Below are positions 1,370 to 63,123 of a stretch of 64,000 bases of DNA, piece by piece (position 1 is the first letter of the stretch; the number at the start of each line of letters is the position of its first letter). The notes under the pieces were generated by a model, which saw nothing but the letters and a program-made list of their open reading frames with translations, made no database searches and was not told where the DNA came from. The position numbers and the translations under genes were made by a program. Source of the stretch: an uncultured Muribaculaceae bacterium (lineage in GTDB: Bacteria; Bacillota_I; Bacilli_A; RF39; UBA660); contig CAYJKH010000002.1 in NCBI GenBank assembly GCA_964371025.1, positions 58,929-122,928 of the forward strand, given 5' to 3'.

Positions 1370-1449
1370 TACTTGATATATATAAATATATTTAGTATAA
1401 TAAGCATATCTTAATTATTAATTAGTAGTAGTAATTATAATTATTTATT

Positions 1450-1610
1450 AAAGAGAGTTTACGGTGGTGAGAGTAAATATAAATAATATAATGAACTTGA
1501 CTAAAAAAATAATAATTGGTGAAGACCATTATAACTTTTAAGAGCATATTTATATGAAGTAAGGTGGTACCACGGAATCATTTCGTCCTTATATAAAGTG
1601 CTTTTTTTTT
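1450..1610 (+). promoter_or_regulatory. T-box riboswitch leader preceding the small ORF/leuS operon
   Basis: AGAGAG near the 5' end. Conserved T-box core AAGGTGGTACCACGG at 1561-1575, followed by a hairpin and T9 run ending at the RBS GGAGGAG. The same core is present upstream of tyrS. Confidence 0.7.
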
Positions 1611-2010
1611 GGAGGAGAATATGAATGCAGTTACAACATACCTTACTTGCTTTTTAGTATTATTTTTAATTTATGAGTTAATTATATTTAGAAGTAAAAA
1701 TAAAGTTAGAAAAAGAAAAAAAGAAAAGGTAGAAAAAAAAGAAAAAGTAGAAAAAAAAGAACCATCAGAAATAATATTATTTAGAAATGTCTTTAAATTA
1801 GATATTGAAAAAATTGGATATAATAAAATAAAACATGTTATATCATTTTCAACAGCTATGGGATTAGCTTTAATAGCAACACTAGTGGCATTTATAGAAA
1901 GTTTTATTATATCTGTATTAATAGTTATGATATTAACAATACCAGTTATGTTATTAATTTATTATTTAGTAAGTCTATATTATAAAAAGAAAGGAATGAT
2001 TACAAAATGA
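1609..2010 (+). CDS. small membrane protein with KEKVEKKEKVEKKE lysine/glutamate repeat (hypothetical)
   Basis: Strong RBS GGAGGAG 6 nt upstream. Two hydrophobic segments. Stop overlaps the leuS start (ATGA). Confidence 0.5.
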   Translation: MEENMNAVTTYLTCFLVLFLIYELIIFRSKNKVRKRKKEKVEKKEKVEKKEPSEIILFRNVFKLDIEKIGYNKIKHVISFSTAMGLALIATLVAFIESFIISVLIVMILTIPVMLLIYYLVSLYYKKKGMITK

Positions 2011-4409: not shown

Positions 4410-4412
4410 AAT

Positions 4413-4446
4413 AAACTGGAATTAAAAGTATTCCAGTTTTTTGTTT
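4413..4446 (+). terminator. rho-independent terminator after leuS
   Basis: Hairpin ACTGGAAT-taaaagt-ATTCCAGT followed by a T run. Confidence 0.75.
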
Positions 4447-4508
4447 TAATATTTTTTTACTTGACTAAATATAGATGATTATCTATAATTGTATTAATAG
4501 GAGATATT

Positions 4509-4787
4509 ATGTTAGAAGATAAGTATGAAATATTTAAAGTATTAGCAGATAAAAGTAGACTTGAAATTATAAAAATAATAATTAATTCAAAAGAAATATG
4601 TGCTTGTGAATTACTAGATAAACTAAATATAACTCAAGCAACTCTTTCATATCACATGAAATTATTAAAGGAAGTAGGATTAGTTAGCTGTTATAAAAGA
4701 GGAACATGGTGTATATATAGCATAGAGAAAGAAACTTTTAATAATTTATCAAAATTATTTAAGGAAATAGGAGAAAACAATGGATAA
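4509..4787 (+). CDS. ArsR/SmtB family transcriptional regulator
   Basis: 92 aa wHTH with metal-site-like CACELLDKLNITQATLSYHMKLLKEVGLV. Confidence 0.75.
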   Translation: MLEDKYEIFKVLADKSRLEIIKIIINSKEICACELLDKLNITQATLSYHMKLLKEVGLVSCYKRGTWCIYSIEKETFNNLSKLFKEIGENNG

Positions 4788-5229
4788 GAAAAAAATAACA
4801 ACAATAGTAGTATTATTGTTAATTATTGTAATTATATTGGGAATGACAATACTAAAAGATAATAGTGTTAAAGAAGTTAGTACAACAGGAACTTTTGATT
4901 TACAAGTAGATGAAAATTTCAATAAAGAAGAAGTTTTAAGTAAAGGGTATCCAACGATGTTAGATATTGGAGGAGCAGATTGCATACCTTGTAAAGAAAT
5001 GGCACCAACGCTAGAAAAATTAAATAAAGATTTAAAAGGTGAAGCAATTATAAAATTTGTGGATTATTGGAAATATCCTGATTTAGCTAAACAATTTGAA
5101 TTTGAGGTTATACCAACTCAATTTTTCTACGATGAAAATGGAGAATTATATACTACTCATGAAGGGGGAATAACAGAAGATAAAATATTAGAAATATTTG
5201 AAGAAATGGGGTATACATTTAGTGAATGA
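4780..5229 (+). CDS. membrane-anchored thioredoxin-like protein (TlpA/ResA-like)
   Basis: N-terminal TM, CxxC motif GADCIPCKEMAP, thioredoxin fold length. Overlaps arsR-like stop. Confidence 0.7.
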   Translation: MDKKKITTIVVLLLIIVIILGMTILKDNSVKEVSTTGTFDLQVDENFNKEEVLSKGYPTMLDIGGADCIPCKEMAPTLEKLNKDLKGEAIIKFVDYWKYPDLAKQFEFEVIPTQFFYDENGELYTTHEGGITEDKILEIFEEMGYTFSE

Positions 5230-5911
5230 TCTATTAATTCAATTTGGAGAAATAATAAATAATAATTATTGGATAGCCCCTTTAATTGCTTTAATAGCAG
5301 GAGTATTAACATCATTTACACCATGTAGTTTAGCAAGTGTTCCATTAGTAATTGGATATGTTGGACAAAAAAAAGAAAGTAATACTAAAAATGCTTTAAA
5401 ACTATCTTTAGTATTTGCTTTAGGAACTGCACTTACTTATACTGCACTAGGAGTAATAGCGACATTAGCAGGTCAAATGTTGATATTTGTAGGTAATTGG
5501 TGGTATTTAGCAATAGGAATAATTTTATTGTTAATGGCATTACAATTTTTAGGAGTAATTGATATCTTACCAAAAAATAATTTATTAAATAAAAATAAAA
5601 AAACAGGTTATTTAGGAGCTTTAATAGCTGGTTTATTAGCTGGATTATTTTCTTCTCCTTGTTCAACCCCAGTCTTAATTGTACTATTAGCAATTGTTGG
5701 ACAACAAGGAAATTTAATTTTTGGTATTTTATTACTTTTACTATATTCAATTGGGCATAGCATATTAATAGTTATATCAGGAACATCTACTAACTTTGTT
5801 CAAAAAATAACTTCGTCAAACCCATATGCAAAACTAAATAAAATTATCAAAATAATAGTAGCATCGGCAATGATTATATTAGCATTCTATTTAATTTATA
5901 TAGGGATTTAA
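5198..5911 (+). CDS. ccdA: cytochrome c-type biogenesis / disulfide-reductant transfer membrane protein CcdA (DsbD family)
   Basis: Multi-TM with paired Cys motifs TPCSLASVP and SPCSTPVL. Start uncertain (TTG 5198 or GTG 5222). Confidence 0.75.
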   Translation: MKKWGIHLVNDLLIQFGEIINNNYWIAPLIALIAGVLTSFTPCSLASVPLVIGYVGQKKESNTKNALKLSLVFALGTALTYTALGVIATLAGQMLIFVGNWWYLAIGIILLLMALQFLGVIDILPKNNLLNKNKKTGYLGALIAGLLAGLFSSPCSTPVLIVLLAIVGQQGNLIFGILLLLLYSIGHSILIVISGTSTNFVQKITSSNPYAKLNKIIKIIVASAMIILAFYLIYIGI

Positions 5912-5966
5912 ATTTATATTAATATTTATAGGATAGTATAATAAAAAGTGATATAATAAATAATAG

Positions 5967-6578
5967 GTGATTAGAATGATTGAATACTTTTTATTATTTT
6001 TTATATATTGCATAATTGGATATATATTTGAATTAGTAATAATGTTAACTGAAAAAAAAGGTTTAACATTTCATAGGGGATTTTTATTTGGACCATATTT
6101 ACCAGTTTATGGAAGTGGGTGTTTAGCTATAACTTTATTACTAGGAAATATATCAAATATATTTCTAATATTTATAGCGAGTTTTATTTTAACAGGTGTT
6201 ATTGAATACTTAACTGGGTATTTAATAGAAAAAATATTTGGACTTAGATGGTGGGATTATTCTAAAGATAAATTTAATATTAAAGGAATAGTTAGATTAA
6301 AAACATTAGTTATTTTTGGGATTGGAGGAATAATTATAGTAAAATATGCCTCTCCGGCATTACTATCTTTAATAAATATAATTCCTAACTCAATTAGTCC
6401 GATTTTAGTTATTACAATAGGAACTATATTAATAATTGATATTATACTAAGTATGTATTTAACATTTGTTATTAAAAATAAAATTAATGTAAATCAAATA
6501 AAAGATTATACTTCAGAAATAAAAAATGAAATATATAAATATATTAAAAATATGTTGAAAAAAAAGAGCACTAATTAG
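5967..6578 (+). CDS. polytopic membrane protein, putative ABC-transporter type IV (CmpB-like) family
   Basis: Motif HRGFLFGPYLPVYGSGC and multiple TM segments. Confidence 0.5.
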   Translation: MIRMIEYFLLFFIYCIIGYIFELVIMLTEKKGLTFHRGFLFGPYLPVYGSGCLAITLLLGNISNIFLIFIASFILTGVIEYLTGYLIEKIFGLRWWDYSKDKFNIKGIVRLKTLVIFGIGGIIIVKYASPALLSLINIIPNSISPILVITIGTILIIDIILSMYLTFVIKNKINVNQIKDYTSEIKNEIYKYIKNMLKKKSTN

Positions 6579-6587
6579 TGTTCTTTT

Positions 6588-7286
6588 TTAGTTTAATTCA
6601 TAGTTTATACATGACAATAAATATAAGGGAACTGTTTCGGTTCTTAAAATAGTATTACCAAAAGTAATAGGGTTATAATTATTTTCTTTTAATAATTCTT
6701 CTTCCTCTTTAGTAAGTCCACCTTCAGGACCAAAAATAAATATTAATGGATCATTATTTGAAGTGGTTAATACGTTCTTTAAGGAATTATTTTTTTCAAC
6801 AGTACTACAAATAAATTTATTTCCTTCAAGTAAACATACTTCTTTAATAGTTTTAATAGAAGAAATTATAGGAATATCTAATCTTTTAGATTGTTCACTA
6901 GCTTCTTTAACTATTTTTTCCCATCTAGCAATCTTTTTATCTTCTTTTCCGTCTACTTTAATTAAAGATCTAGTCATAATTGTTGGAATAATTTTATTAA
7001 CATTTAATTCAGTAGCTTTTTGTAAAACTAAATTCATTTTAGCCTCTTTTAAAATAGGAACAATTAAAATAACTTCTTTTTTATTAGATATTTGATTTTC
7101 TTCATAATCAATTTTAAAATAGTTCGAAATAGGAGACCCTACACTACAAATATATAATTTTTTTTGATAAACTATTTCTATTTTACTTTTGTCATCCATC
7201 CGCATAACTGTTTTTATATGATGAATATCATCATTTGATAAATATAGAGAATTATCTTTTAATTCATTTGAAAAGTATCTTTGCAT
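6588..7286 (-). CDS. rsmE: 16S rRNA (uracil1498-N3)-methyltransferase
   Basis: C-terminal FGPEGGLTKEEEELL motif typical of RsmE, about 230 aa. Confidence 0.85.
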   Translation of the reverse strand: MQRYFSNELKDNSLYLSNDDIHHIKTVMRMDDKSKIEIVYQKKLYICSVGSPISNYFKIDYEENQISNKKEVILIVPILKEAKMNLVLQKATELNVNKIIPTIMTRSLIKVDGKEDKKIARWEKIVKEASEQSKRLDIPIISSIKTIKEVCLLEGNKFICSTVEKNNSLKNVLTTSNNDPLIFIFGPEGGLTKEEEELLKENNYNPITFGNTILRTETVPLYLLSCINYELN

Positions 7287-7295
7287 ATTATCTCC

Positions 7296-8570
7296 TTATT
7301 TTTTTATTTTTCTATATAACCTGTAACTAACATTATAAAAATTATACCAAAAAGGGGATATGACTAAATCAAATTCTCCGATTAACTCTTCAACTTGACC
7401 CCCAAAACTTTTTTTAAATAAATATAGTCCTAAAAGAGGATTGTTTTTACTAAAGTCTCCAGTTATACCATAAAAGTTATATTTTTTATAATGGTTATTT
7501 ACAGCTAATTTAATTCCTTCAAAGTGAAGAGTATAGGCAGATTGGAATTGCATTAATTCCTTTAGACTACCTCCGAATAAAGATAGTACTTCATTTCCTT
7601 GAATTAAAAACATGATAGCCCCAAGGGGTTTAATTTCTCCAAACTCTTCTTTTAATTCTTTTTGTTTTTTGATTTGATTATTTAATCTAGTAATTGTATC
7701 TTCATCGCTTTTATTACTTTGTAAATATTTCTTTTCATTCATCTTTAATAAATTATTTTCATACTTATTAATTCGATCATTTAAATTATCTTTTATAATA
7801 GATAATTCTTCTTCTAAATTATTGATATATTTAGAAAAATTTATTTCTGCTACATATATTTTCATCATATCTCCAAGGTTATCCCACATATTTTCATAAT
7901 ATGATAAAGGTCGATCAATAAAGTTTCTGCGATCACCGGTATGCTGCATGATATTTTTAAATAAGTTTAATTCATCTTTAGCTATTTCTCTTGATATAAT
8001 AGCACTTTTTTCATTCTTACGAATAATCTGTCTTGTTTTTGATTCCATCTTTTCAAATATTTCTTCTAATGTTTTATTATTAGTATCTAATGTATGAATC
8101 CATCTTGGTTGTAATTCTTCTTGTAACATATTAAATCCAAAATGTTTATATTTTAATTTTATTAAATTATTATAACTATTAAAGTTATTAAAACCATCCT
8201 TAACAATGTTTCCTTCATTGTCTCTTTCCTGATATGAAAGATAAGGATCTATTTTAATAAAAATAGCACCTTTATTTTTAGCAAATTTTTTTAGTTCTTT
8301 TGTGAAATACTCTAATTCTTCATAAGTATTATAATCTATTAAAAAACCTCTAGGAGCATAAAACATTTTTTTATTAATTAAAGGAAGTTTCTTAGCTAAA
8401 ATTAAACTAGCTGCTATAACTTCATTATTTTTTTTAATTCCTACAAAAAATGATTCCCAACCATTAGTCTTTTTTAAATCTCCCCATTCTTTAGTTTGGT
8501 GAAAAGAAGTTAATGGGTGACTTTTTGAAAAATTTTCAAATTCTTTAATCGTTAACTCAATAAATTTCAT
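7296..8570 (-). CDS. FemAB-family peptidoglycan interpeptide-bridge aminoacyltransferase (paralog 2)
   Basis: HQTKEWGDLK motif (FemAB Q..W..K), about 420 aa, central coiled-coil insertion, GNAT-like halves. Confidence 0.85.
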   Translation of the reverse strand: MKFIELTIKEFENFSKSHPLTSFHQTKEWGDLKKTNGWESFFVGIKKNNEVIAASLILAKKLPLINKKMFYAPRGFLIDYNTYEELEYFTKELKKFAKNKGAIFIKIDPYLSYQERDNEGNIVKDGFNNFNSYNNLIKLKYKHFGFNMLQEELQPRWIHTLDTNNKTLEEIFEKMESKTRQIIRKNEKSAIISREIAKDELNLFKNIMQHTGDRRNFIDRPLSYYENMWDNLGDMMKIYVAEINFSKYINNLEEELSIIKDNLNDRINKYENNLLKMNEKKYLQSNKSDEDTITRLNNQIKKQKELKEEFGEIKPLGAIMFLIQGNEVLSLFGGSLKELMQFQSAYTLHFEGIKLAVNNHYKKYNFYGITGDFSKNNPLLGLYLFKKSFGGQVEELIGEFDLVISPFWYNFYNVSYRLYRKIKK

Positions 8571-31329: not shown

Positions 31330-31659
31330 ATGTATCAAAATAAAATAAATTTAATGCCACAAGATATTTTAGAAAAAGAATTTAAAATTGATACTCGTGG
31401 ATACAGATTAAAAGAAGTTGATCTATTTTTGGATACTGTTATTTCTGATTATGAACAGTTTTTGAATATGATAAATAATCTTGAAAAAGAAAAGGCTGAT
31501 TTACTTGGTGAGATTATGAAATTAAAACAAGAATTAAGAAATAATAGAATTAATGTAGAAGCAGCAAGAAGTAATGAAATGAATGAGGTTTCTAACGTTG
31601 ATATTTTAAGAAGAATATCACAATTAGAAAAATTAGTATACGGTGATAGAAATAATTAA
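31330..31659 (+). CDS. gpsB: cell-cycle protein GpsB (DivIVA domain)
   Basis: N-terminus MPQDILEKEFKIDTRGYRLKEVDLFLD. Adjacent rnpB as in Bacillus. Confidence 0.8.
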   Translation: MYQNKINLMPQDILEKEFKIDTRGYRLKEVDLFLDTVISDYEQFLNMINNLEKEKADLLGEIMKLKQELRNNRINVEAARSNEMNEVSNVDILRRISQLEKLVYGDRNN

Positions 31660-31663
31660 TATA

Positions 31664-32008
31664 TAGATAAACGCTGGTATTTTAAAATGCTTGAGGAAAG
31701 TCCATGCTCTCACAAACTGAGATGTTTGTAGTGTTCATGTATAGGGAAAAAATAACCTATAGTAGAGAAATCTAACGGAGGTAGTTAAGTCTAAGTCTTT
31801 GATATGATTTAATCCATAAAAGTGCCGCAGTGACGATAACTTTGGAAACGAAGGTGTGAAACGAGGTAAACCCCATGAGAGAGAAACCCAAATTTGGTAG
31901 GGGAATTCTAACGAAGGAATTAAACGGAGTTAGGAACTGTTTGTATATATACAAATGGTAGATAAATGTTTATCGCCTAGAAATAGGAACAGAACATGGC
32001 TTATTTAT
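31664..32008 (+). ncRNA. rnpB: RNase P RNA, bacterial type B
   Basis: GAGGAAAGTCCATGCTC, AGTGCCGCAGTGACG, GGTAAACCCCATGAGAGAGAAACCCAAATTTGGTAGGGGAA and ACAGAACATGGCTTA conserved blocks. Ends approximate. Confidence 0.85.
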
Positions 32009-44184: not shown

Positions 44185-44271
44185 GCCTGTGTGGTGGAAT
44201 TGGTAGACACGTTGGACTCAAAATCCAATGGTAGAAATATCATGTCGGTTCAAGTCCGACCACAGGTACCA
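44185..44271 (+). tRNA. tRNA-Leu (anticodon CAA), CCA encoded
   Basis: 87 nt. Acceptor GCCTGTG/CACAGGT. Anticodon loop CUCAAAA. Long variable arm. T-loop GGTTCAAGTCC. Confidence 0.9.
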
Positions 44272-53222: not shown

Positions 53223-53726
53223 TAATGATCTAATTAGTGGTGAATCAGATATATATCCGTTATATACATATTCACAAGAATTATTGGAAAAGTAATCAGA
53301 TAATATCTCCATACAATGCCAATTATATTTTTTGAAAAGTGGTGATAAAGAATTTAATCTTTCATCACTGACACTGATAATAGGAGTGTTTGTATCTAAT
53401 ACCGTAAGAGACTCATCCATTAATGAAGTAGAAATTTCCTTGTAAATTTTATCTACTTTAAATATAGATATTCTTTTTTCATCACAGTTATTTTTTAAAC
53501 AAGAAACACCTACTATGTTTTTATTATCTTTTACAAATAATATATCTCTTTCATTTGTAATTATATTTTTAACTACAGTATTATAAAACCATTCTTTAGA
53601 GTTAGGATAATTATCATCTTTTATAAACATAAATATATTAGAACATAACTCTATAAATTCATCATCCTTAGTATTAATATAGTCTTTTAAACTTTCTATT
53701 TTACAATTTAATTCTTCCATCAACAT
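53208..53726 (-). CDS. hypothetical protein (possibly degenerate GNAT-like)
   Basis: RBS AGAGGG. 172 aa. No clear motif. Confidence 0.4.
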   Translation of the reverse strand: MLMEELNCKIESLKDYINTKDDEFIELCSNIFMFIKDDNYPNSKEWFYNTVVKNIITNERDILFVKDNKNIVGVSCLKNNCDEKRISIFKVDKIYKEISTSLMDESLTVLDTNTPIISVSDERLNSLSPLFKKYNWHCMEILSDYFSNNSCEYVYNGYISDSPLIRSLKKDL

Positions 53727-54008
53727 AACCCTCTTAAATATATAATAACATAAAATAAAAAAAAGAAGTAAAACTTCTTTTAAATAATTTCAAAAATAGA
53801 GGTTGCACCCCCTGAGGGCAACCTCAAAAGAATAAAAAGGGGTTGGCTAGTGTGATACTAGCTCACCAATTCGCCTTATATGTCGAACTGGTAATTAATA
53901 TACTAATCGATAGGATATATTTTGTCAAGGAAAAAGATGAAAAAATCTTTTAAATTAAAAAAAACTATTATATAATGGTATTAAGAATAAAATAAGGAGG
54001 GTGTATTT

Positions 54009-56339
54009 ATGCCAACATTAAAGAAAGAGGAACTAGTTTTAATAGATCGTTATTTTAGAGCAGTTAATTATTTATCAGTAGGACAATTATATTTATATGA
54101 TAATCCTTTGTTAAAAAGAGAGTTAACAATTAATGATATTAAACCTAATTTAGTGGGACACTGGGGGACTGCTCCTGGTCAAAATTTTATATATACTCAC
54201 CTTAATCGTATTATCAAAAAACACAATTTAAATATTTTATATATTTCTGGTCCTGGTCATGGGGGACAAGCGATGATTGCTAATAATTATTTAGATGGAA
54301 CTTATACGAAGTTTTATCCAAAAATTACCCAAGATGAAAAAGGAATGAAAAAATTATTTAAACAGTTTTCATATCCTGGCGGAGTGTCTTCCCATGTTGC
54401 GGCAGAAACTCCAGGTTCTATTCATGAAGGAGGAGAACTTGGGTATTCTCTAGCTCATGCGGCAGGGACTGTTTTAGACAATAAAGATTTAATTACAGCT
54501 TGTGTTATTGGAGATGGAGAAGCAGAAACTGGTCCTCTTGCAACTAGTTGGCATTTAAATAAATTTTTAAATCCCAAAACAGATGGAATAGTGTTACCAA
54601 TTCTACATAGAAATGGGTATAAAATTTCTAATCCGACTGTTTTTGGTAGAATGAGTAAGCAAGAGATGGAAGATTTCTTTTATGGAGTGGGTTGGAAACC
54701 TTACTTTGTAGCAGGAGATGATCCTTTAAAGATGCATGAATTAATGGCTACTACCTTAGAGAAAGTTTTAAGGGATATTAAAAATATTAAAACTAGTAAT
54801 AAAAGAATAAAGTATCCAATGATTGTATTAACTACTCCGAAGGGATGGACTGGTCCTCATATGGTTGATTCTAAAAAAATTGAGGGGACTTTTAGAGCTC
54901 ATCAAGTACCAGTAGTTATTACAAAAGATAAGTATGATCAATTACCAATTTTAGATAAGTGGTTAAAAAGTTATCATCCGGAAGAGTTATTTGATATAGA
55001 TGGTAAATTATTAAGTGATATTAAAAGTATTATTCCAAAAAGTGAAAAATGTATGGGGATGAGTCCTTATGCTAACGGAGGGTTATTATTAAAAGAAATT
55101 AAAACTCCAATCTGGGAAAATTATGCTTTAGATATTAAGAGTCCTGGTTCTTTTGAAAAACAAGATATGATGGAACTGGGTAAATATATAAGAGATGTAT
55201 TTTTACTTAATAAAGATAATAAGAACTTTAGATTATTTGGACCAGATGAAGCTATGAGTAATAAAATGAGTCATATTTTTGAAGTTGAAAAAAGAATGTG
55301 GAATTATAAAACTTTAAAAAATGATGAATTTTTAAGTCCAACTGGTAGAGTAATGGATTCTTATTTATCAGAACATTTATGCGAGGGAATGCTTGAGGGT
55401 TATTTATTAACAGGAAGACATGGTTTTTTCCATACGTATGAAGCTTTTTCACGTATAATTGATTCCATGGTAGCACAACATGCTAAATGGTTAAAAGTAT
55501 GTAAGGAATTGTCTTTTAGAAAAGATATTTCATCTTTAAATATAGTATTAACATCACATGTATTCCAACAAGATCATAATGGATATACACATCAAGAACC
55601 GGGGTTCTTAAATCATTTATCTACGAAAAAAGATGATATAGTAAATATTTATTTACCACCGGATACAAACTGTTTATTAGCAACTTTTGATAAGTGTTTA
55701 AAAACAAAAAATAAAATAAATGCTATAGTTGCTTCAAAACATCTTAGACCACAGTATTTAAATAAAGCTCATGCTAAAGTTCATGTTGAAAATGGAATAG
55801 GGGTATTTAATTTTGCATCTAATGATTTAGGAAAACCAGATATTATATTAGCTTGTTGTGGAGAGACTCCAACTTTAGAAGTTTTAGCAGCAACTAATTT
55901 GTTAAGAACAACTGTTAAAGATATTAAGATTAGAGTTATTAATGTAGTAGAGTTAATGAGATTAAAAAAAGGACATCCAAGAGGATTATCAGATATTGAG
56001 TTTAATACTTTATTTACAAAAGATGTTCCAGTAATATTTAATTTTCATGGTTATCCTAGTTTAATAAATCAATTAATTTATAATAGAGATAATAAAAATA
56101 TATTAGTAAAAGGATACGAAGAAGAAGGAACTATTACTACAACATTTGATATAAGAGTTCAAAATAAAATAGATAGATTTAATATAATGAAAGAATCACT
56201 TATGTTAATCCCTAAGTATAAATCAGTATCAGCACCTCTTTTAAAATGGTGTGATGATATGCTTAGTTATCATAATAGTTATATTAAACAATTTGGAGAA
56301 GATATTCCTTTAGTAAAAGAATGGAAATGGAATTTATAA
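54009..56339 (+). CDS. xfp: xylulose-5-phosphate/fructose-6-phosphate phosphoketolase
   Basis: 776 aa. N-terminus LSVGQLYLYDNPLL. Motifs GHWGT, EGGELGY. Confidence 0.95.
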   Translation: MPTLKKEELVLIDRYFRAVNYLSVGQLYLYDNPLLKRELTINDIKPNLVGHWGTAPGQNFIYTHLNRIIKKHNLNILYISGPGHGGQAMIANNYLDGTYTKFYPKITQDEKGMKKLFKQFSYPGGVSSHVAAETPGSIHEGGELGYSLAHAAGTVLDNKDLITACVIGDGEAETGPLATSWHLNKFLNPKTDGIVLPILHRNGYKISNPTVFGRMSKQEMEDFFYGVGWKPYFVAGDDPLKMHELMATTLEKVLRDIKNIKTSNKRIKYPMIVLTTPKGWTGPHMVDSKKIEGTFRAHQVPVVITKDKYDQLPILDKWLKSYHPEELFDIDGKLLSDIKSIIPKSEKCMGMSPYANGGLLLKEIKTPIWENYALDIKSPGSFEKQDMMELGKYIRDVFLLNKDNKNFRLFGPDEAMSNKMSHIFEVEKRMWNYKTLKNDEFLSPTGRVMDSYLSEHLCEGMLEGYLLTGRHGFFHTYEAFSRIIDSMVAQHAKWLKVCKELSFRKDISSLNIVLTSHVFQQDHNGYTHQEPGFLNHLSTKKDDIVNIYLPPDTNCLLATFDKCLKTKNKINAIVASKHLRPQYLNKAHAKVHVENGIGVFNFASNDLGKPDIILACCGETPTLEVLAATNLLRTTVKDIKIRVINVVELMRLKKGHPRGLSDIEFNTLFTKDVPVIFNFHGYPSLINQLIYNRDNKNILVKGYEEEGTITTTFDIRVQNKIDRFNIMKESLMLIPKYKSVSAPLLKWCDDMLSYHNSYIKQFGEDIPLVKEWKWNL

Positions 56340-56365
56340 GAGATGCTTAAGCATTTCTTTTTTGA

Positions 56366-58426
56366 TTGATAAAAAGTTGTTTATTTATAAAAAAAATATG
56401 TTATAATATGCAAGAAGGAAGTGATAGTGTGTCAAAACTTGCAGATATTAAAGGATTAGGGCCTAAATCGTTACTTTTACTAGAAAAGTTATCGATAAAC
56501 AATATAAATGACTTAGTAATGCATTATCCTTTTAGATACGATATGTTAGTTAGAAATACTCTACAAGAAGTTAATGATGGAGAAAAGATAGTTATTGATG
56601 GGAAGATAGAGAGTATTCCAATATTAATGAGATTTAAAACAGGTTTAAATAAAATGAATTTTAGATTAGTAACACCCTCTGGAGTAGTGGGAGTTTCTAT
56701 ATTTAATAGAGCATTTATCAAAAAAGATTTATTAGTAGGGACAACTGTTACTGTTATTGGAAAACTAGATAAGAAGAAAAATATAATAACAGCAGCTGAT
56801 ATTAAATTAGAGGGTTTATCTAATAAAGTTAAAATAGAACCAATATATCATACTACTAGTGGATTAACTAATAAAAATCTAAGAACATATATAAATATGG
56901 GATTATTAATGTTTGGTAAAGAGATAGAGGATTATATACCTAAATCATTGATTGAAAAGTATAAATTTTTAAATAAAAAGACATCTTTAAATATTATTCA
57001 TAATCCTTCAACTGAAGAAAAATTAAAAGATGTTACCATTAGATTAAAGTATGAAGAATTATTTATATTTATGTTTAAAATTAATTACTTAAAATTAATG
57101 AATAAAAAGAAAAATATCGGAGTAGTAAGAGTTATTGATAAAGATAAAGTAAATAAGTTTATAAAAAGTATTCCATTTGAATTAACAAATGATCAATTAA
57201 TTACAGTAGAAGATATCTTAAATGATTTAGAAAAAGATTATAGAATGAATAGACTATTACAAGGTGATGTTGGAAGTGGTAAAACAATAGTATCTTTTAT
57301 TGCAATGTATGCTAATTACTTATCGGGATTTCAATCAGCATTAATGGCTCCAACGGAAATATTAGCAATTCAACATTTTAATAATATTAAAAAAATTATT
57401 AAAGATAAAAATATTAATATAGAACTTTTAACAGGATCAACTCCTAAAAAAGAAAAGAGTGCTATTTATGAAAAATTAAAAAATGGGGAAGTTCATATTA
57501 TTATTGGAACTCATGCTTTAATTCAAGATGATGTAGAGTATCAAAATCTAGGGTTAGTAATAACAGATGAACAACATCGTTTTGGGGTTCATCAAAGAGC
57601 AAATCTTCATAATAAAGGTAAAAAACCAGATATATTATATATGAGTGCTACACCAATTCCTAGAACTTATGCCTTAACTATTTTTGGAGATATGGATGTT
57701 TCTACAATTAAGGAAAGACCTAAAGGAAGACAACCAATTGAGACAATGATAAAACAAAATGATGAAATAAAAGATGTTTTAGAAATAATTTATGATGAGT
57801 TAAAAGAAAAGCATCAAATTTATGTAATAGCCCCTTTAATTGAAGAAAGTGAAGTTAGTGACTTAACTAATGTAGCAGAATTAAAAGAAAAAATGTCATT
57901 AGCGTTTGGTAAAAAATATAATATTGAAATAATTCATGGAAAAATGACTAGTGTTGCAAAGGAATTAGTAATGCAATCATTTAAAGAAGGGAAAATAGAT
58001 ATATTAATTTCTACAACCGTAGTAGAAGTTGGAGTAGATGTTGAAAATGCATCCACTATAGTTATCTTTGATGCCGAAAGATTTGGACTTTCAACCCTTC
58101 ACCAATTAAGAGGAAGAGTTGGAAGAGGATCAATTAAATCAAAATGTATTTTAATAAGTGATAATAAGTCTGAAAGACTTAAAATAATGACTAATACCGA
58201 AGATGGATTTAAAATAAGTGAAGAAGACTTTAAACTAAGAGGTTCGGGAGATATATTTGGAAGTAAACAAAGTGGAGATATGTCATTTAAAATAGTTAAT
58301 ATAAAAAATGATTATAAAATATTGCTTCAAGCTAAAAAAGATTCAAAAGAATATCTCCTTGATAAAAACACAGATAATGAAGAACTAAAACAAAAACTAA
58401 TAAATTCAATGATAAAAGATTCATAA
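56366..58426 (+). CDS. recG: ATP-dependent DNA helicase RecG
   Basis: Wedge/OB N-terminal region. Helicase motifs GDVGSGKT, DEQHRFG, QLRGRVGRG. The start may be ATG 56409. Confidence 0.92.
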   Translation: MIKSCLFIKKICYNMQEGSDSVSKLADIKGLGPKSLLLLEKLSINNINDLVMHYPFRYDMLVRNTLQEVNDGEKIVIDGKIESIPILMRFKTGLNKMNFRLVTPSGVVGVSIFNRAFIKKDLLVGTTVTVIGKLDKKKNIITAADIKLEGLSNKVKIEPIYHTTSGLTNKNLRTYINMGLLMFGKEIEDYIPKSLIEKYKFLNKKTSLNIIHNPSTEEKLKDVTIRLKYEELFIFMFKINYLKLMNKKKNIGVVRVIDKDKVNKFIKSIPFELTNDQLITVEDILNDLEKDYRMNRLLQGDVGSGKTIVSFIAMYANYLSGFQSALMAPTEILAIQHFNNIKKIIKDKNINIELLTGSTPKKEKSAIYEKLKNGEVHIIIGTHALIQDDVEYQNLGLVITDEQHRFGVHQRANLHNKGKKPDILYMSATPIPRTYALTIFGDMDVSTIKERPKGRQPIETMIKQNDEIKDVLEIIYDELKEKHQIYVIAPLIEESEVSDLTNVAELKEKMSLAFGKKYNIEIIHGKMTSVAKELVMQSFKEGKIDILISTTVVEVGVDVENASTIVIFDAERFGLSTLHQLRGRVGRGSIKSKCILISDNKSERLKIMTNTEDGFKISEEDFKLRGSGDIFGSKQSGDMSFKIVNIKNDYKILLQAKKDSKEYLLDKNTDNEELKQKLINSMIKDS

Positions 58427-58495
58427 TATGTAAAATTAAAAGTAATTATTCTCAATCATATTGACAATAATTACAATTTATTCTATTATTAAGAT

Positions 58496-58592
58496 GCATG
58501 ATATATATCATGCTGATTATCTCTCACGGATTTGTGTGAGAGTATATTCAACCGAACCCCCTGAAGAGAAGACATTGTCTTCTCGTTTTTTT
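58496..58592 (+). ncRNA. candidate small RNA or cis-regulatory leader (unclassified)
   Basis: Consensus promoter TTGACA-17-TATTAT (58461-58489). Two internal hairpins. Intrinsic terminator GAGAAGACA-ttg-TGTCTTCTC + T7. No RBS-led ORF. Confidence 0.35.
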
Positions 58593-58809
58593 ATAAAGTA
58601 TAACATTTCGATTTTAATAATTAGCTCATGTACGTAAGTAAAATCGTTCACTTATTAATTTAACTATAATGAAACAGTAATTAAATTAATGAGTATAAAT
58701 AAGAGTAAATTTTTAGAATTTGTTATTTGAAAGGAAATTGAATTATGTTAAAAAAAAAATTATATTAAAATATGATATAATTTTTTTATTATAGAAAAAG
58801 AGGTTATTT

Positions 58810-59427
58810 ATGAATCAGGAAATTTTTAGTAATAGTAATAATTATTATTGTGCACATGGAACAGGGCGCTTAAATGATAGTCCTGAGATAATTAATTCAA
58901 TTTTTAAGATTGGATTAAGATGTAGTCATGGCTCTTTGGAAAATACAGTAGTTCAATATGGATCAGGCCGTGATGATCTTTTTAATGAAAAGAAAAATAG
59001 TTTTGATAACTGGGAACATATTAATTCAAAAAAAATAGTTATAATTAGTGTTCCCAAAGAATTATATATTCATTATTCTTTTAAAAAAGATTGCTCATAT
59101 AAAGCATTTGAATATATTAATGATGAAAATCAAAATGTATATTTAAGACCTGAATATGTAAGAGGGTATTATAATGCAGAAACAGAAGAATTTATAGAAA
59201 ATCCTAATTATTATGATAAGTTAGATGATAATTATCAAAGAAAATTATACGAAGAAGTAAAAACAAATTTTGCTAAAACAATTAATGAATTAGGTAGTTC
59301 CCTTGAGGAGTATAATTCTATTTATGAAAATTTCATTGAATCTCCAATTCCTTTTAGTGAAGCAGAAATAAAGTTGTATGATCAAATGTACCAAAAAAAT
59401 TCAAATGAAAAAGATTTTAGTAGATAA
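58810..59427 (+). CDS. hypothetical cytoplasmic protein
   Basis: RBS AAGAGG. Own extended -10 TGATATAAT. 205 aa. No recognisable domain. Confidence 0.45.
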   Translation: MNQEIFSNSNNYYCAHGTGRLNDSPEIINSIFKIGLRCSHGSLENTVVQYGSGRDDLFNEKKNSFDNWEHINSKKIVIISVPKELYIHYSFKKDCSYKAFEYINDENQNVYLRPEYVRGYYNAETEEFIENPNYYDKLDDNYQRKLYEEVKTNFAKTINELGSSLEEYNSIYENFIESPIPFSEAEIKLYDQMYQKNSNEKDFSR

Positions 59428-59545
59428 AAGAAGATGTTAATCTTCTTTTTTTACACTTAGATATCTTAATAAAATCTTAATAAAAAGATTATTTTATATT
59501 AATAATTATTTGCTATAATAAAAAAGACAAAGGAAGTGGAGTTTT

Positions 59546-60247
59546 ATGAATAAAATACTAGTAGTAGATGATGATAAAGAAATAGTTAAATCAATTGAAA
59601 TTTATTTAAGGCAAGAAAACTATGAAATATTTAAAGCATATGATGGAATAGAAGCATTAGAAGTAATTGATAAGAATGAAATTAATTTAGTCATATTAGA
59701 TATAATGATGCCTAATTTAGATGGAATTAGTACTGTTAATAAGATAAGAGAAAAATTAAATATACCAGTTATTTTATTATCTGCTAAAAGTGAAGATTAT
59801 GATAAAATTGAAGGTTTAAATAAAGGAGCAGATGATTATATAACAAAACCTTTTAATCCATTAGAATTAATTGCAAGAGTTAATTCTCAACTTAGAAGAT
59901 ATAATAATTTTTATAAAAAAACTAATAATGAAGAAATATATAGAAGTGGGGATTTAATTATCAATAATTTAACAAAAGAAATTAGTGTGTTAGATAAAAA
60001 AATTAAATTAACTCCAACTGAATATAATATTTTATTATTTTTATTAAAAAATAAAGGAAAAGTATATTCAATGGACCAAATATATAGTGAAATATCATCA
60101 AGTGATAGTTATGATATATCTAATATAATAGCAGTTCATATTAGACATATTAGAGAAAAAATAGAAGTTAATCCAAAAAACCCAATCTATTTAAAAATAA
60201 TTTGGGGAGTAGGATATAAAATAGAAGATATAAAGGAGAAATTATGA
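59546..60247 (+). CDS. OmpR-family response regulator
   Basis: Receiver ILVVDDD...DIMMP...KPF plus winged-helix C-terminal domain. Confidence 0.9.
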   Translation: MNKILVVDDDKEIVKSIEIYLRQENYEIFKAYDGIEALEVIDKNEINLVILDIMMPNLDGISTVNKIREKLNIPVILLSAKSEDYDKIEGLNKGADDYITKPFNPLELIARVNSQLRRYNNFYKKTNNEEIYRSGDLIINNLTKEISVLDKKIKLTPTEYNILLFLLKNKGKVYSMDQIYSEISSSDSYDISNIIAVHIRHIREKIEVNPKNPIYLKIIWGVGYKIEDIKEKL

Positions 60248-62193
60248 AAAATAAAAATACAAAATGGATCTTATTTAGGTGGTTAGGATATATATTAATA
60301 CCTGTTTTAATATTTATAATAACTCTTAATGGAGCAGTAATATATACTGTTTCTAATAACTCATTAGATGATTTTGATGATAATAATTATTATGAATCAG
60401 ATTTCTTTTTAGATCAGTTAGAAAGTGATTTGAAAAATATGGTGATTGAGGCAAATAATACAGTAATTACAGATGATTATTCTCATTATTCTTCACATGG
60501 AGTTATTGATATTAATGGAGAAAAATATGAAATAATAAATAGTTATTTGAACGAATATCAAGATTTTGATTTTATTTATGTTGATAATGTTGCTAAAGAA
60601 ATAAATATTAATAAATTAGATGTAAATATTAAAGAGATAATTGAAGATGAATCATTAGGAGATTATTATTATACTGATATTGATAATGTTATTACATCTA
60701 CAATTGGAGATTATGATGTAAAAGATATCGTAATAAACTATGGAATTTTAAATCAATATAATTTTGAAAATCTAGAAAATGCCGATTTTTATTATTCATA
60801 TGATAATATAGAATATACATCAACTACAAGTTTAGAGAGCATCTGGTATAATATTGTAAAAGGAAGCTATAAATATGCAGTTTTAAATATTTGTATAGCA
60901 GCTTTATTATTACTTACACTGACTATACTAATGTTTATAGGAATTGGAAAAAATAGAGAAAATGATGATATTAAGTTAAATAAATTTGATAATATTCCGT
61001 TCGAATTAATCGTATTTGCGGGAATGATGCCACTGTTTATTGGGATAAACTCTATGGATGATCATATTGTAATAACTACTGTTATGTTAAGTATTCTATA
61101 TATTATATGGTTAAATATTCTAATTACATTTATAAAAAGGATTAAAGCTAGTAGTTTATTAAAAAGTACTTTAATATATAAATCAATTATTCTTATGAAA
61201 AGTATATTTACAAAAGTACGTGAAAATGTAAAAATAACTGCTATAATAGTGGGATTTGTATTTATAAATTTCTTCTTAATAGTAACCGAGTATCATCCGT
61301 TTATAATGTTAATTTATATAGCAGTATTAATAGGAATTGGTATTTATGTATATAAAAGATACTTTATGTTAAAAAATATAAAACAATTGATTAATGATAT
61401 ATATGAAAATAAAACATATACTATAAAAAAAGAAGATTATACAGAAGATTTTTATGAGGTAGTAGAAAAACTAGATAAAATATCAAATGGATTTAATGAA
61501 GCACTAGAATCAAAACTAGTAAGTGAAAGAATGAAGAGTGAACTTATTACTAATGTATCACATGATATTAAAACTCCACTAACTTCCATTATTAATTACA
61601 TAGATTTATTGCAAAAAGAAAAAATAGAAGATAAGAAAATAAATGAATATATAAATATTTTAAGTATTAAAGCAGATAGGTTAAAAAAATTAACTGAAGA
61701 TTTAGTAGAATTATCAAAAGCAAGTTCAGGAAACTTAAAAATAGGGTTTAGTAAAATAAATATAAATGAATTATTAAACCAATTAAATGGGGAATATGAT
61801 GAAAAAATAAAAACATCTAAATTAGAGATAGATTATGAGAATAATAAAAATATATTTATTAAAGCAGATACTAAATATATATACCGTGTATTTGACAATA
61901 TATATAGTAATATAGTTAAATATTCTATGAAAAATACAAGAGTTTATCTAGATATTAAAGAAGCTGATAATGAAGTTATTATTTCAATAAAAAATATTTC
62001 TAAAGAAAAATTAAATATATCAAAAGAAGAGTTAATCCAAAGATTTGTAAGAGGAGACTCTTCAAGAAGTGAACAAGGGAGTGGATTAGGGTTATCTATA
62101 GTTGATAACTTAGTAAAACTCCAAGAAGGTAATTTTGATATTACGATCGATGGTGATTTATTTAAAGTGATAATTACATTTAAGAAGTGGTAA
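60244..62193 (+). CDS. sensor histidine kinase with large extracytoplasmic N-terminal domain
   Basis: Two TMs flank a domain of about 190 aa. H-box SHDIKTPLTSI. G-box GSGLGLSIV. Overlaps RR stop. Confidence 0.88.
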   Translation: MKNKNTKWILFRWLGYILIPVLIFIITLNGAVIYTVSNNSLDDFDDNNYYESDFFLDQLESDLKNMVIEANNTVITDDYSHYSSHGVIDINGEKYEIINSYLNEYQDFDFIYVDNVAKEININKLDVNIKEIIEDESLGDYYYTDIDNVITSTIGDYDVKDIVINYGILNQYNFENLENADFYYSYDNIEYTSTTSLESIWYNIVKGSYKYAVLNICIAALLLLTLTILMFIGIGKNRENDDIKLNKFDNIPFELIVFAGMMPLFIGINSMDDHIVITTVMLSILYIIWLNILITFIKRIKASSLLKSTLIYKSIILMKSIFTKVRENVKITAIIVGFVFINFFLIVTEYHPFIMLIYIAVLIGIGIYVYKRYFMLKNIKQLINDIYENKTYTIKKEDYTEDFYEVVEKLDKISNGFNEALESKLVSERMKSELITNVSHDIKTPLTSIINYIDLLQKEKIEDKKINEYINILSIKADRLKKLTEDLVELSKASSGNLKIGFSKININELLNQLNGEYDEKIKTSKLEIDYENNKNIFIKADTKYIYRVFDNIYSNIVKYSMKNTRVYLDIKEADNEVIISIKNISKEKLNISKEELIQRFVRGDSSRSEQGSGLGLSIVDNLVKLQEGNFDITIDGDLFKVIITFKKW

Positions 62194-62370
62194 AATAAAA
62201 AGTTTATCGCTTTTTTATTTTAAATAACAAAGTAAAAAAAGTGTAATTACAAATAAAATAAATAAAAAAGACTTTATATATGAAAAAATAGTTAAAGTAG
62301 ACTAAGAGTGTAAAAACTCTTTTTTATATGCTATAATTAATTTATAAATATAGTTATTTCAGAGGGGAAA

Positions 62371-63123
62371 ATGGATATAGTTAAACTTAATATAATAATA
62401 AATAATTATCTGGATAAAATGGGAAATGAAAATAATATATTAACAGGAAGTTTATTGTCTGAAGAAGTAAAGTCATTTTTACAAAAGGACGCAAATCCGT
62501 TTTTAATAGGATTAATAGCAGATCAATCAGTTAAAGCAGAAATAGCATGGAGTTTACCTTATAAATTAAAGAATCGAATGAATACTTTTGGTTTTATAGA
62601 TATATTAAATAATTTTTCAATACACGAAATCGAAGATTTTATTAAAATAAAACCAGCTTTGCATAGATTTCCTAGTAAAATGGCTCAGTACATATATTTA
62701 GCTATAAAAGATGTAGTAGAAAAATATGAAGGAGATGCTAGTAATATATGGGTAAATAAAACCGCAAAAGAAATAGTAACTAAATTAGAACAGTTTAAAG
62801 GTATTAGCCATAAAAAAGCCTCACTTGGAACGCTTTTATTAGTAAGAGATATGAATTTAAAAATTGTTGACATGGAAAATATTGATATAGCATATGATGT
62901 TCATATAAAAAGAATATTTAAAAGAGTAGGATTAGTAGAAGAAGAAAACGAAGAAAATGTATTGCTAGCTGCAAGAAAACTTAATCCAATATTCCCGGGT
63001 AAATTAACAACATTTTTTTGGGCAATAGGCAGAGACTATTGTTATGCTACTGAACCCAAATGTAAAAGTTGTCCACTAGGTTATGAATGTAAGGAAAATA
63101 TAACTGTTAAAGAGAGGTGCTAA
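62371..63123 (+). CDS. HhH-GPD/endonuclease III-like protein with [4Fe-4S] cluster loop
   Basis: C-terminal C-X6-C-X2-C-X5-C (CYATEPKCKSCPLGYEC). Weak HhH FKGISHKKASLGT. Confidence 0.5.
   Translation: MDIVKLNIIINNYLDKMGNENNILTGSLLSEEVKSFLQKDANPFLIGLIADQSVKAEIAWSLPYKLKNRMNTFGFIDILNNFSIHEIEDFIKIKPALHRFPSKMAQYIYLAIKDVVEKYEGDASNIWVNKTAKEIVTKLEQFKGISHKKASLGTLLLVRDMNLKIVDMENIDIAYDVHIKRIFKRVGLVEEENEENVLLAARKLNPIFPGKLTTFFWAIGRDYCYATEPKCKSCPLGYECKENITVKERC

Follow-up and report, generated by a model that had tools for sequence, protein, structure and literature searches.

Introduction

RsaE/RoxS (Rfam family RF01820; Bacillales) is a small RNA (sRNA) of ~100 nucleotides (nt) that is transcribed from a sigma-A promoter, ends at an intrinsic terminator, and pairs through a C-rich motif with G-rich Shine-Dalgarno (SD) sequences (PMC4409812, PMC6158497). 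In Bacillus subtilis, the sponge RNA RosA acts on RoxS and FsrA (PMC8216469). Genes for small stable RNAs also serve as attachment sites (attB) for mobile elements. Islands in tRNA and transfer-messenger RNA (tmRNA) genes (Islander, PMC4383910) split the gene at a short core, with the element regenerating the gene and the displaced fragment marking the far end, and phage phiEf11 integrates in ffs (PMC12540744). We here describe an RNA gene, sRNA-A, located downstream of recG in a 64,000-nt stretch of contig CAYJKH010000002.1 (hereafter, the window) from an uncultured bacterium. The explanation that we favor for the locus as a whole, and consider fairly probable, is that it encodes a new non-coding sRNA, that it contains an attB core, and that the RNA acts in trans by pairing of a C-rich seed. 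sRNA-A falls among known kinds of element, namely C-rich Firmicute riboregulators and RNA-gene attB sites, and is not a new category.

Like RsaE/RoxS, sRNA-A is ~100 nt in length and combines a sigma-A promoter and a terminator with stem-loops and a C-rich motif that is predicted to be accessible. It differs from RsaE/RoxS in that it has one run of five C residues (C5) in a single strand, not several CCCC motifs in loops or linkers, and in that its hosts are uncultured AT-rich gut Bacilli rather than Bacillales. RF01820 was not among the cmscan matches of sRNA-A even at E ≤ 10. By analogy, sRNA-A may work like RsaE without being a member of that family. As at attB sites in tRNA, tmRNA, and ffs genes, crossover at sRNA-A falls in the 3' part of a small RNA gene, the lost 3' end is supplied anew by the element, a displaced fragment is left at its far end, an integrase adjoins the regenerated gene, and tandem arrays occur. 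Unlike those sites, the core shared at sRNA-A can be as short as 10 base pairs (bp) and lies at the boundary between seed and terminator, and the elements restore a terminator hairpin of unrelated sequence, whereas tRNA-type elements restore the conserved 3' end of the RNA.

We know of essentially no riboregulators for the large branch of uncultured gut and rumen Bacilli in which sRNA-A occurs, and the present analysis adds to this branch an RNA family of >100 sequences with strong covariation. The family has a testable seed and points to a second, unannotated and more conserved sRNA, designated sRNA-B, that carries the seed complement. The use of small stable RNA genes as attB, a principle described for tRNA, tmRNA, and ffs, is also broadened to include an sRNA of the regulatory type.

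Structure of the sRNA-A gene

The gene for sRNA-A, on the forward strand, begins with a sigma-A-type promoter in which the -35 hexamer TTGACA (58461-58466) is separated by a 17-nt spacer from the -10 hexamer TATTAT (58484-58489). This promoter matches the consensus at 11 of 12 positions and was the top of 18 promoter-like sites in a scan of 57900-59700. The transcription start predicted from the promoter is ~58496, and promoter and terminator together delimit an RNA of ~96 nt (~58496-58592). In the minimum free energy (MFE) fold, the 5' extremity of the RNA forms hairpin H1 (58496-58513; GCAUGAUAUAUAUCAUGC, GCAUGAU-AUAU-AUCAUGC), with a perfect 7-bp stem, and this is followed by the long hairpin H2 (58514-58550), which consists of a CUCUCAC/GUGAGAG core with an outer AU-rich extension and whose loop opens with a conserved ACG(A/G). 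A C-rich single strand, AACCGAACCCCCUGAAG (58550-58566), comes next; its 15 nt at 58551-58565 are unpaired in both MFE and centroid structures, and we regard it as a putative base-pairing seed. The intrinsic terminator consists of an 8-bp G+C-containing stem, GAGAAGAC/GUCUUCUC, with the loop AUU (stem at 58566-58584) and of a G and seven T residues at 58586-58592.

The terminator at 58566-58592 was the sole terminator-like site in the 1.8 kb of 57900-59700, compared with 0.2 in shuffled sequences. The 99-nt RNA folded with -33.8 kcal/mol, versus -16.3 ± 2.8 kcal/mol for dinucleotide shuffles (z = -6.33), and none of 200 shuffles was as good. The reverse strand of the locus folded nearly as well, as is expected of hairpins, with the promoter and U-tract being present only on the forward strand. 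The G+C content is 37% for the element, 26% for the window, and 16% for the 217-nt spacer that separates sRNA-A from the next gene. The latter, on the same strand, starts at ATG 58810 and has an extended -10 promoter that can be read directly from the sequence (TG at 58773-58774, TATAAT at 58776-58781). No second copy of sRNA-A was found in the window by blastn-short or with covariance model R1 described below (next match, 16 bits; E = 0.59).

A preliminary description of this locus had listed the TTGACA-17-TATTAT promoter, two stable hairpins, a strong intrinsic terminator, and a next gene more than 200 nt away with its own extended -10. All of these features were recovered here at the same places, with the CTCTCAC/GTGAGAG stem extending into the longer helix of 58514-58550.

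Homologs and covariation

Sixteen loci with relatives of RecG were taken from contigs of one genome per species, the close ones all being metagenome-assembled genomes (MAGs) labeled uncultured Bacilli or Tenericutes. Searches of these loci by blastn and nhmmer with the intergenic region, in which no pattern was used, found the element in 5 of the 16 (L003, L005, L010, L011, and L015). It was located immediately 3' of recG in four of these five loci and ~0.9 kb further downstream in L011. Their alignment showed that the promoter and the terminator are kept, that the hairpins change letters yet still pair, and that ACC-AAAA/GAA-CCCCCUGAAG is invariant. A degenerate pattern built from this alignment and scanned over metagenome contigs yielded at least 120 loci and, after removal of chance matches, at least 116 homologs from metagenomes and MAGs of the gut and rumen, among which 80 distinct RNA bodies were represented. 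Covariance model R1, which was built from 51 of these sequences, matched the window at 58489-58591 on the forward strand with 74.8 bits (E = 2e-13). Without the use of a DNA pattern, the model also revealed sRNA-A in all 13 loci with enough flank that were fetched via three RecG proteins; the copies so obtained include some with the -35 context ATTGACTT, which the search pattern would miss.

Covariation was computed on the alignment of 80 sequences, with sliding controls in which 3' partners were shifted by 1-3 columns. Standard pairs occupied 92.7% of cells, versus 32-44% with slid partners, and the covariation score was 0.675, versus 0.234 ± 0.009 in shuffles, none of 500 of which scored as high. 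Conservation of the hairpins in related genomes had been proposed as a check in the preliminary description; all three helices were found to covary, with double-sided (compensatory) changes at 24 of 26 pairs. All eight pairs of H1 showed such changes, with 94% of cells paired, as did 11 of the 12 pairs of H2, the A-U pair at alignment columns 77/117 being invariant. In the terminator helix, 100% of cells were paired and five of six pairs covaried, the closing G-C pair being invariant. The -10 element, which was left free by the search, was TAnnnT at a spacing of exactly 17 nt in 101 of the 116 homologs.

With conservation and covariation in >100 other sequences, the sRNA-A locus lies far beyond a chance arrangement. 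The comparisons show the family to be widespread in uncultured, very AT-rich MAGs of gut and rumen "Bacilli/Tenericutes," a clade that we suspect to be the GTDB order RF39. The RecG proteins of genomes with sRNA-A are only about 50% identical, yet the single strand is extremely conserved. Close relatives of the window contig with sRNA-A include ERZ28655611 scaffold_6 and GCA_017475375.1 (JAFVFR010000187.1), the copies being those of L152-L154.

A deletion variant of sRNA-A was observed in L140 (6567-6660), in which 19 nt (ACCCCCTGAAGACACTGTC) between two CGA repeats are gone in comparison with L143, a locus with the same RecG. The deletion removes the seed, and the R1 score is 43 bits, versus 74-79 bits; the variant may represent either a real loss or an assembly artefact.

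Coding potential, RNA class, and downstream genes

A frame of 48 codons begins with the ATG at 58494, and the list of open reading frames (ORFs) contains a TTG-started ORF of 58 amino acids (aa) at 58461-58637. That the frame from the ATG makes the locus a small protein gene is a possibility that we consider negligible. No SD sequence precedes it, the longest ORFs in the 80 homologs encode 6-36 aa and run in differing frames through the conserved block, and indels in the hairpin loops are not multiples of three. In 78 of the 80 homologs, no SD-like pentamer occurred among the 60 nt at the 5' end, and no ORF was conserved, in agreement with the earlier statement that a ribosome-binding site and a convincing ORF are lacking.

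The preliminary description had matched the element to no known riboswitch class and had suggested a scan against Rfam. With Rfam 15 at gathering thresholds, only a class B RNase P RNA (31658-32008, 251 bits) and one tRNA (44185-44268) were detected in the whole window. In a permissive scan of 58380-58860, no family reached E < 0.3, the best matches being on the wrong strand with 14-21 bits versus thresholds of 56-117. The presence of a class B RNase P RNA fits a host of the Firmicutes/Mollicutes type. Signal recognition particle (SRP) RNA, 6S RNA, and tmRNA were considered as identities because mobile elements target such genes. These and RNase P RNA were rejected, no model for any of them matching sRNA-A. 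ARAGORN found no tRNA or tmRNA gene in 53600-59000, no tRNA or tmRNA family of Rfam matched at the locus, and no SRP domain IV motif is evident in sRNA-A. The core motif was not found in the literature in a relevant context, and neither sRNA motif occurred in the first 200 of the 408 supplementary files of a catalog of structured RNAs from the human microbiome (PMC8040213).

Firmicute leaders usually have the layout seen here, in which a gene is preceded on its own strand by a promoter, a structured RNA, and a terminator, and the preliminary description had offered as its fallback a leader of the riboswitch kind that is fixed in the terminated state. On that reading, sRNA-A would act in cis on the gene at 58810 by termination and antitermination. 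The downstream ORFs of the homologs fall into 214 clusters, however, and the commonest neighbors are integrases on the opposite strand; genes for AbiE, Fic, and DNA_alkylation proteins, ORFs without assignment, and even a convergent recG also occupy this position. The terminator is swapped among loci with identical bodies, so that no conserved antiterminator is possible, and the window itself has the 217-nt spacer of 16% G+C and the separate extended -10 before 58810, with no match to a riboswitch or leader family. A cis-acting leader is barely tenable in the face of downstream genes that vary and that often belong to mobile elements.

Given the absence of an Rfam match, the absence of a conserved ORF or ribosome-binding site, and the variation of the downstream genes, sRNA-A is an sRNA in its own right rather than a leader or riboswitch. 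Our comparisons thus show an independently transcribed non-coding sRNA, with predicted expression, of a family absent from Rfam 15, and the original proposal of an independent novel sRNA is upheld by the conserved promoter and covarying helices as well. As judged from its sequence, the locus has the properties of a generic trans-acting sRNA, namely its own promoter and terminator, a conserved structure, and no coding potential.

Linkage to recG

The upstream neighbor of sRNA-A is recG (56408-58426, forward strand), whose product contains the Pfam domains RecG_wedge, DEAD, Helicase_C, and RecG_dom3_C. The recG stop is at 58426, the -35 hexamer of sRNA-A begins 35 nt later, and the sRNA-A start lies 70 nt after the stop. 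No terminator was found between the recG stop and sRNA-A in the scan of 57900-59700, and the sRNA-A terminator would therefore also end recG transcripts. Among homologous loci, recG was present upstream in at least 61 of 105, as well as in all 13 loci obtained via RecG. Some lineages have an intervening gene (encoding 133 or 242 aa) that separates recG from sRNA-A; in one lineage, recG lies downstream of sRNA-A on the opposite strand, in convergent orientation.

This proximity, together with the missing terminator and the presence of recG as the neighbor in most loci, would suit a 3' untranslated region (UTR) or terminator module of recG with an incidental promoter. In contrast, the -35 and -10 hexamers are kept at a fixed spacing, intervening genes or a convergent recG occur in some lineages, and recG was not seen in the 3 kb upstream of sRNA-A in 44 of the 105 loci, many of which, however, have short flanks. 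A plain terminator, moreover, needs neither two covarying upstream hairpins nor an invariant single strand. We consider a mere recG module to be quite improbable and regard sRNA-A as a transcription unit of its own. Like sRNAs of the 3'-UTR type with their own promoter, sRNA-A uses the first terminator after the upstream mRNA, here that of recG. Unlike in those sRNAs, its promoter is located in the intergenic spacer and not inside the coding sequence, and the linkage to recG is not universal.

The recG start was assigned to ATG 56408, a 672-aa database protein being 100% identical from this position. The listed recG ORF begins at TTG 56366. Purines resembling AAGAAGGAAG come before the likely start at 56408, close upstream of which there is also a promoter-like TATAAT (GTTATAATATG).

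Integration at the seed-terminator junction

Comparison of junctions among homologous loci located a 10-bp crossover core (attB), CCCCCTGAAG, which corresponds to 58557-58566 of the window. Identical promoters and bodies diverge abruptly right after CCCCCTGAAG. Eight contigs that share one body have at least five different terminators and flanks, and six different bodies, in turn, share a single terminator and flank (AGAGCATTTAACCGTGCTCTC...TTTTATAAGG). Contigs with an identical RecG (P0116) show three to four different junctions, one of them with an integrase, and those of the P0025 group have Mob_Pre with or without an integrase. In L021, L035, L057, L068, L087, L104, L112, and L128, the opposite strand carries an ORF of ~370 aa at a distance of 85-135 nt downstream; its representatives from L021 and L087 match the tyrosine integrase family PF00589 at about 1e-28. 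Integrases are also found downstream in L142 and L148. Genes near the hotspot encode Mob_Pre relaxases, AAA_25 ATPases, small excisionase-like proteins, Fic proteins, and AbiEi/AbiEii pairs.

Displaced copies of CCCCCTGAAG and a terminator were found 0.7-11 kb downstream of sRNA-A in L030 (+2.2 kb), L071 (+1.5), L079 (+1.0), L082 (+1.2), L084 (+1.0), L089 (+1.4 and +7.0), L104 (+11.1), L118 (+0.7), and L120 (+0.9). The displaced repeat starts exactly at the first C of the run, with the bases 5' of the repeat being different, and some of the far-end flanks match the immediate flanks of other loci. Scanning of viral contigs gave only three pattern matches, two of them real (L137 and L139); L139, the match that was examined, resembles an AbiE-type defense island rather than a clear phage.

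A fixed break followed by different 3' flanks, an adjacent integrase, and a displaced repeat are thus all present, as would be predicted for an attB hotspot in an RNA gene. As judged from these junctions, we show CCCCCTGAAG to be the attachment core at which tyrosine integrase elements insert, some of them with Mob_Pre and AAA_25. All 80 aligned 3' ends form a terminator, including those supplied by elements, and the fact that every element-supplied 3' end does so is evidence of selection for an intact sRNA gene. Each inserted element would bring its own terminator hairpin and thereby keep the sRNA gene intact, as for tRNA and tmRNA genes.

The clear role of CCCCCTGAAG as a recombination core also invites the view that conservation of the locus is purely at the DNA level, that of an att site, with the RNA being a functionless by-product. 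Such a view leaves unexplained the compensatory changes in 19 of the 20 pairs of H1 and H2, the conserved promoter, and the new terminator delivered by every inserted element, and the conserved block reaches 5' of the direct repeat, to AACCnAA(A). We therefore regard it as very improbable and maintain that a functional RNA gene hosts the attachment core.

Several features of the inserts were observed in addition. L089 carries a tandem array (669-7830) with three copies of CCCCCTGAAGGAGCCATTAGGCTCCATTTTTTGTT, at sRNA-A, at +1.4 kb, and at +7.0 kb, and the far flank of the small insert of L118 matches the integrase-bearing flank of L087 (95% over 208 nt). The cargo of the hotspot (L139:1416-5634; L070, L105, and L133; L152:9966-9995) is often related to defense, including AbiEi/AbiEii and Fic together with an unannotated 751-aa ORF. 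In the closest long contigs, an MmeI-type restriction-modification gene lies a few kilobases downstream. In many loci, among them L142, L143, L147, and L137, the element-side flanks after the donated terminator share a loose TTT(T)ATAAGGG(T/A)TTT motif even though the elements otherwise differ, and this motif may be an arm-type site of the integrase or a site for an accessory factor.

No second core (CCCCCTGAAG/CCCCCTGA) was found in the window, including the 5.4 kb between sRNA-A and the downstream window end. In MAGs of this branch, the 10-bp core provides a landmark for the delimitation of integrative mobilizable elements and defense islands as well as a warning that contigs break or mis-join at the sRNA-A site. 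The naturally occurring set of attB sites and integrases could serve in the engineering of such organisms.

The C-rich single strand

The most conserved part of sRNA-A is the unpaired AACC(A/G)AA(A)CCCCCUGAAG, which links H2 to the terminator. In 80 of 80 sequences, the final G of the C-rich block pairs with a C and so closes the terminator. In AT-rich Firmicutes, sRNAs that pair with G-rich SD regions, such as RsaE/RoxS, are typified by an accessible C5 run, and the presence of such a run in sRNA-A therefore favors a trans-acting base-pairing mechanism. We give about even credence to the proposal, based on this analogy, that sRNA-A acts in trans through pairing of the C-rich seed. In such a mechanism, the C-rich block would pair with G-rich sites of the SD type (AGGGGG or CAGGGGG), and this pairing would block translation or alter mRNA stability, like the C-rich motifs of RsaE/RoxS in other Firmicutes. 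The 5' hairpin would probably protect sRNA-A from 5' exonucleases.

Duplexes of the seed were computed with all GGGG sites of the window and with 783 translation-initiation regions in all loci, and these scans were not discriminating. Candidates in the window, which are suggestive only, include the genes starting at 62371 (HhH-GPD-like, -16.4 kcal/mol), 21425 (function not assigned, -17.2 kcal/mol), 25282 (CCA-adding enzyme), and 32513 (PgsA-like). The HhH-GPD-like gene (ATG at 62371) is a candidate target located 3.8 kb downstream of sRNA-A; its SD region (62355-62373) contains UUCAGAGGGGAAAAUG, which complements CCCC(C)UGAA of the seed with one bulge, and the energy given above refers to this duplex.

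An alternative that we consider unlikely, though less so than those discussed so far, is that sRNA-A is a protein-binding or housekeeping RNA, either a decoy or scaffold for a protein that binds C-rich RNA or a part of a conserved machinery, rather than a base-pairing regulator. It would accord with the near-consensus, constitutive-looking promoter, with the extreme conservation of the single strand, and with the lack of a specific mRNA target in our scans, as well as with the preference of mobile elements for conserved stable RNA genes such as those for tRNA, tmRNA, and ffs (PMC4383910, PMC12540744). None of the models for housekeeping RNAs (SRP, 6S, tmRNA, and RNase P) matches sRNA-A, however, and RNase P RNA is encoded elsewhere in the window. 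Furthermore, the exact complement of the seed recurs far above expectation in a loop of sRNA-B, a recurrence that is most simply explained by an RNA-RNA contact.

sRNA-B as a putative partner

In the search for cores, many loci showed, upstream of recG, a hairpin whose loop is CCCCCTGA(A)G; on the opposite strand, this hairpin is the 3' hairpin of sRNA-B, a unit that runs from a promoter to a terminator. The window copy lies 4.7 kb upstream of sRNA-A on the reverse strand (gene at 53792-53928), with a -35 hexamer TTGACA (53928-53923), a 17-nt spacer, a -10 hexamer TAGTAT (53905-53900), and an RNA at ~53893-53792. Two hairpins are followed by an invariant CCAACCCCUUUUUAUUC and then by a 3' hairpin (53825-53799), whose loop CCUCAGGGGGU (53817-53807) is complementary to the seed of sRNA-A. 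The family is characterized by TTGACA-17-TA(A/G)TAT, two hairpins, a near-invariant GCUAGUAUCACACUAGCCAACCCCUUUUUAUUC, and a 3' hairpin with a covarying stem and a loop that keeps C(U)UCAGGGGG. At least 53 copies were found across the loci, usually divergent from recG, and they are more conserved than sRNA-A.

Permissive Rfam scans of L004 and of the sRNA-B locus gave no match for sRNA-B. Model R1 missed sRNA-B, and homology of the two sRNAs was not demonstrable. The DUF2815 RNA motif (RF03084), a hairpin with a CCCC...UGAAG loop followed by UAAAAAGG, gave a partial match of 20 bits (gathering threshold, 41.2) to the forward strand of the sRNA-B terminator region in L004. This match is on the strand opposite to that of the sRNA-B promoter and U-tract, no DUF2815 gene is nearby, and the motif did not match sRNA-A.

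When 1.02 Mb of loci were searched for CAGGGGG, which complements the seed exactly, 189 occurrences were counted, versus ~3.7 predicted from base composition. Sites antisense to sRNA-A account for 130 of these and sites antisense to displaced copies of attR for 13; a further 40 fall in the 3' hairpin of sRNA-B, with ~6 elsewhere. The heptamer is thus present in the 3' hairpin of 40 of the 53 sRNA-B copies. Among the 76 non-self GGGG sites of the window, the sRNA-B loop was the top duplex partner of the seed, with -19.0 kcal/mol. The simplest reading of the complementarity is an RNA-RNA contact of 8-11 bp between the seed of sRNA-A and the loop of sRNA-B, which we put forward tentatively and with somewhat less than even confidence. 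In this event, sRNA-B might sponge sRNA-A or be opened by it. The complementarity may also have a DNA-level cause, with the sRNA-B loop being a secondary site for the recombinase. sRNA-B resembles RosA in that the C-rich seed of another sRNA finds its complement in a G-rich stretch. Unlike in RosA, this stretch is the loop of a 3' hairpin, sRNA-B also has an invariant C-rich strand of its own, and the interaction is a predicted one.

A number of observations weigh against the overall explanation offered here. The invariance of ATTGACAA, ACC, and CCCCCTGAAG in the set of 116 sequences was partly built in by the search pattern. The positions that the pattern left free are nevertheless 78-100% conserved (the A before ACC in 94%, followed by A/G, A, and AA), and the C-rich block is identical in loci found by blast and in those fetched through RecG; the conservation is therefore real. 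Conservation of CCCCCTGAAG could also derive in part from its role as a DNA-level att core rather than from RNA pairing, and metagenome assemblies can mis-join at repeats such as the sRNA-A junction. No mRNA target or gene family stood out in the target scans, the seed pairing with many G-rich SD sequences at -13 to -17 kcal/mol. With regard to the partner, 13 of the 53 copies of sRNA-B are without the complementary loop, though their genomes carry sRNA-A, and the pairing of sRNA-A with sRNA-B therefore cannot be obligatory. Part of the G-run of the window sRNA-B is also predicted to be paired inside its own hairpin, and the seed shows no variation that could covary with the loop.

A wider scheme, which we consider doubtful, would have recG flanked by a regulatory pair of sRNAs, with the seed kissing the sRNA-B loop either as a sponge interaction or as a switch that unmasks the invariant CCAACCCCUUUUU strand. 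Mobile elements would have evolved to recombine in the junction between seed and terminator, with donation of a terminator, and the sRNA gene would be a tRNA-like "safe harbor" that organizes a hotspot of defense islands in genome-reduced gut Bacilli.

Other features of the window

The 205-aa ORF that follows sRNA-A (58810-59427) had no match in Pfam, PHROGs, or PADLOC and no exact copy in the protein collection, and a downstream 250-aa ORF had no match in PADLOC or PHROGs. The 205-aa ORF is followed at 59546-62193 by genes for an OmpR-type response regulator and a histidine kinase.

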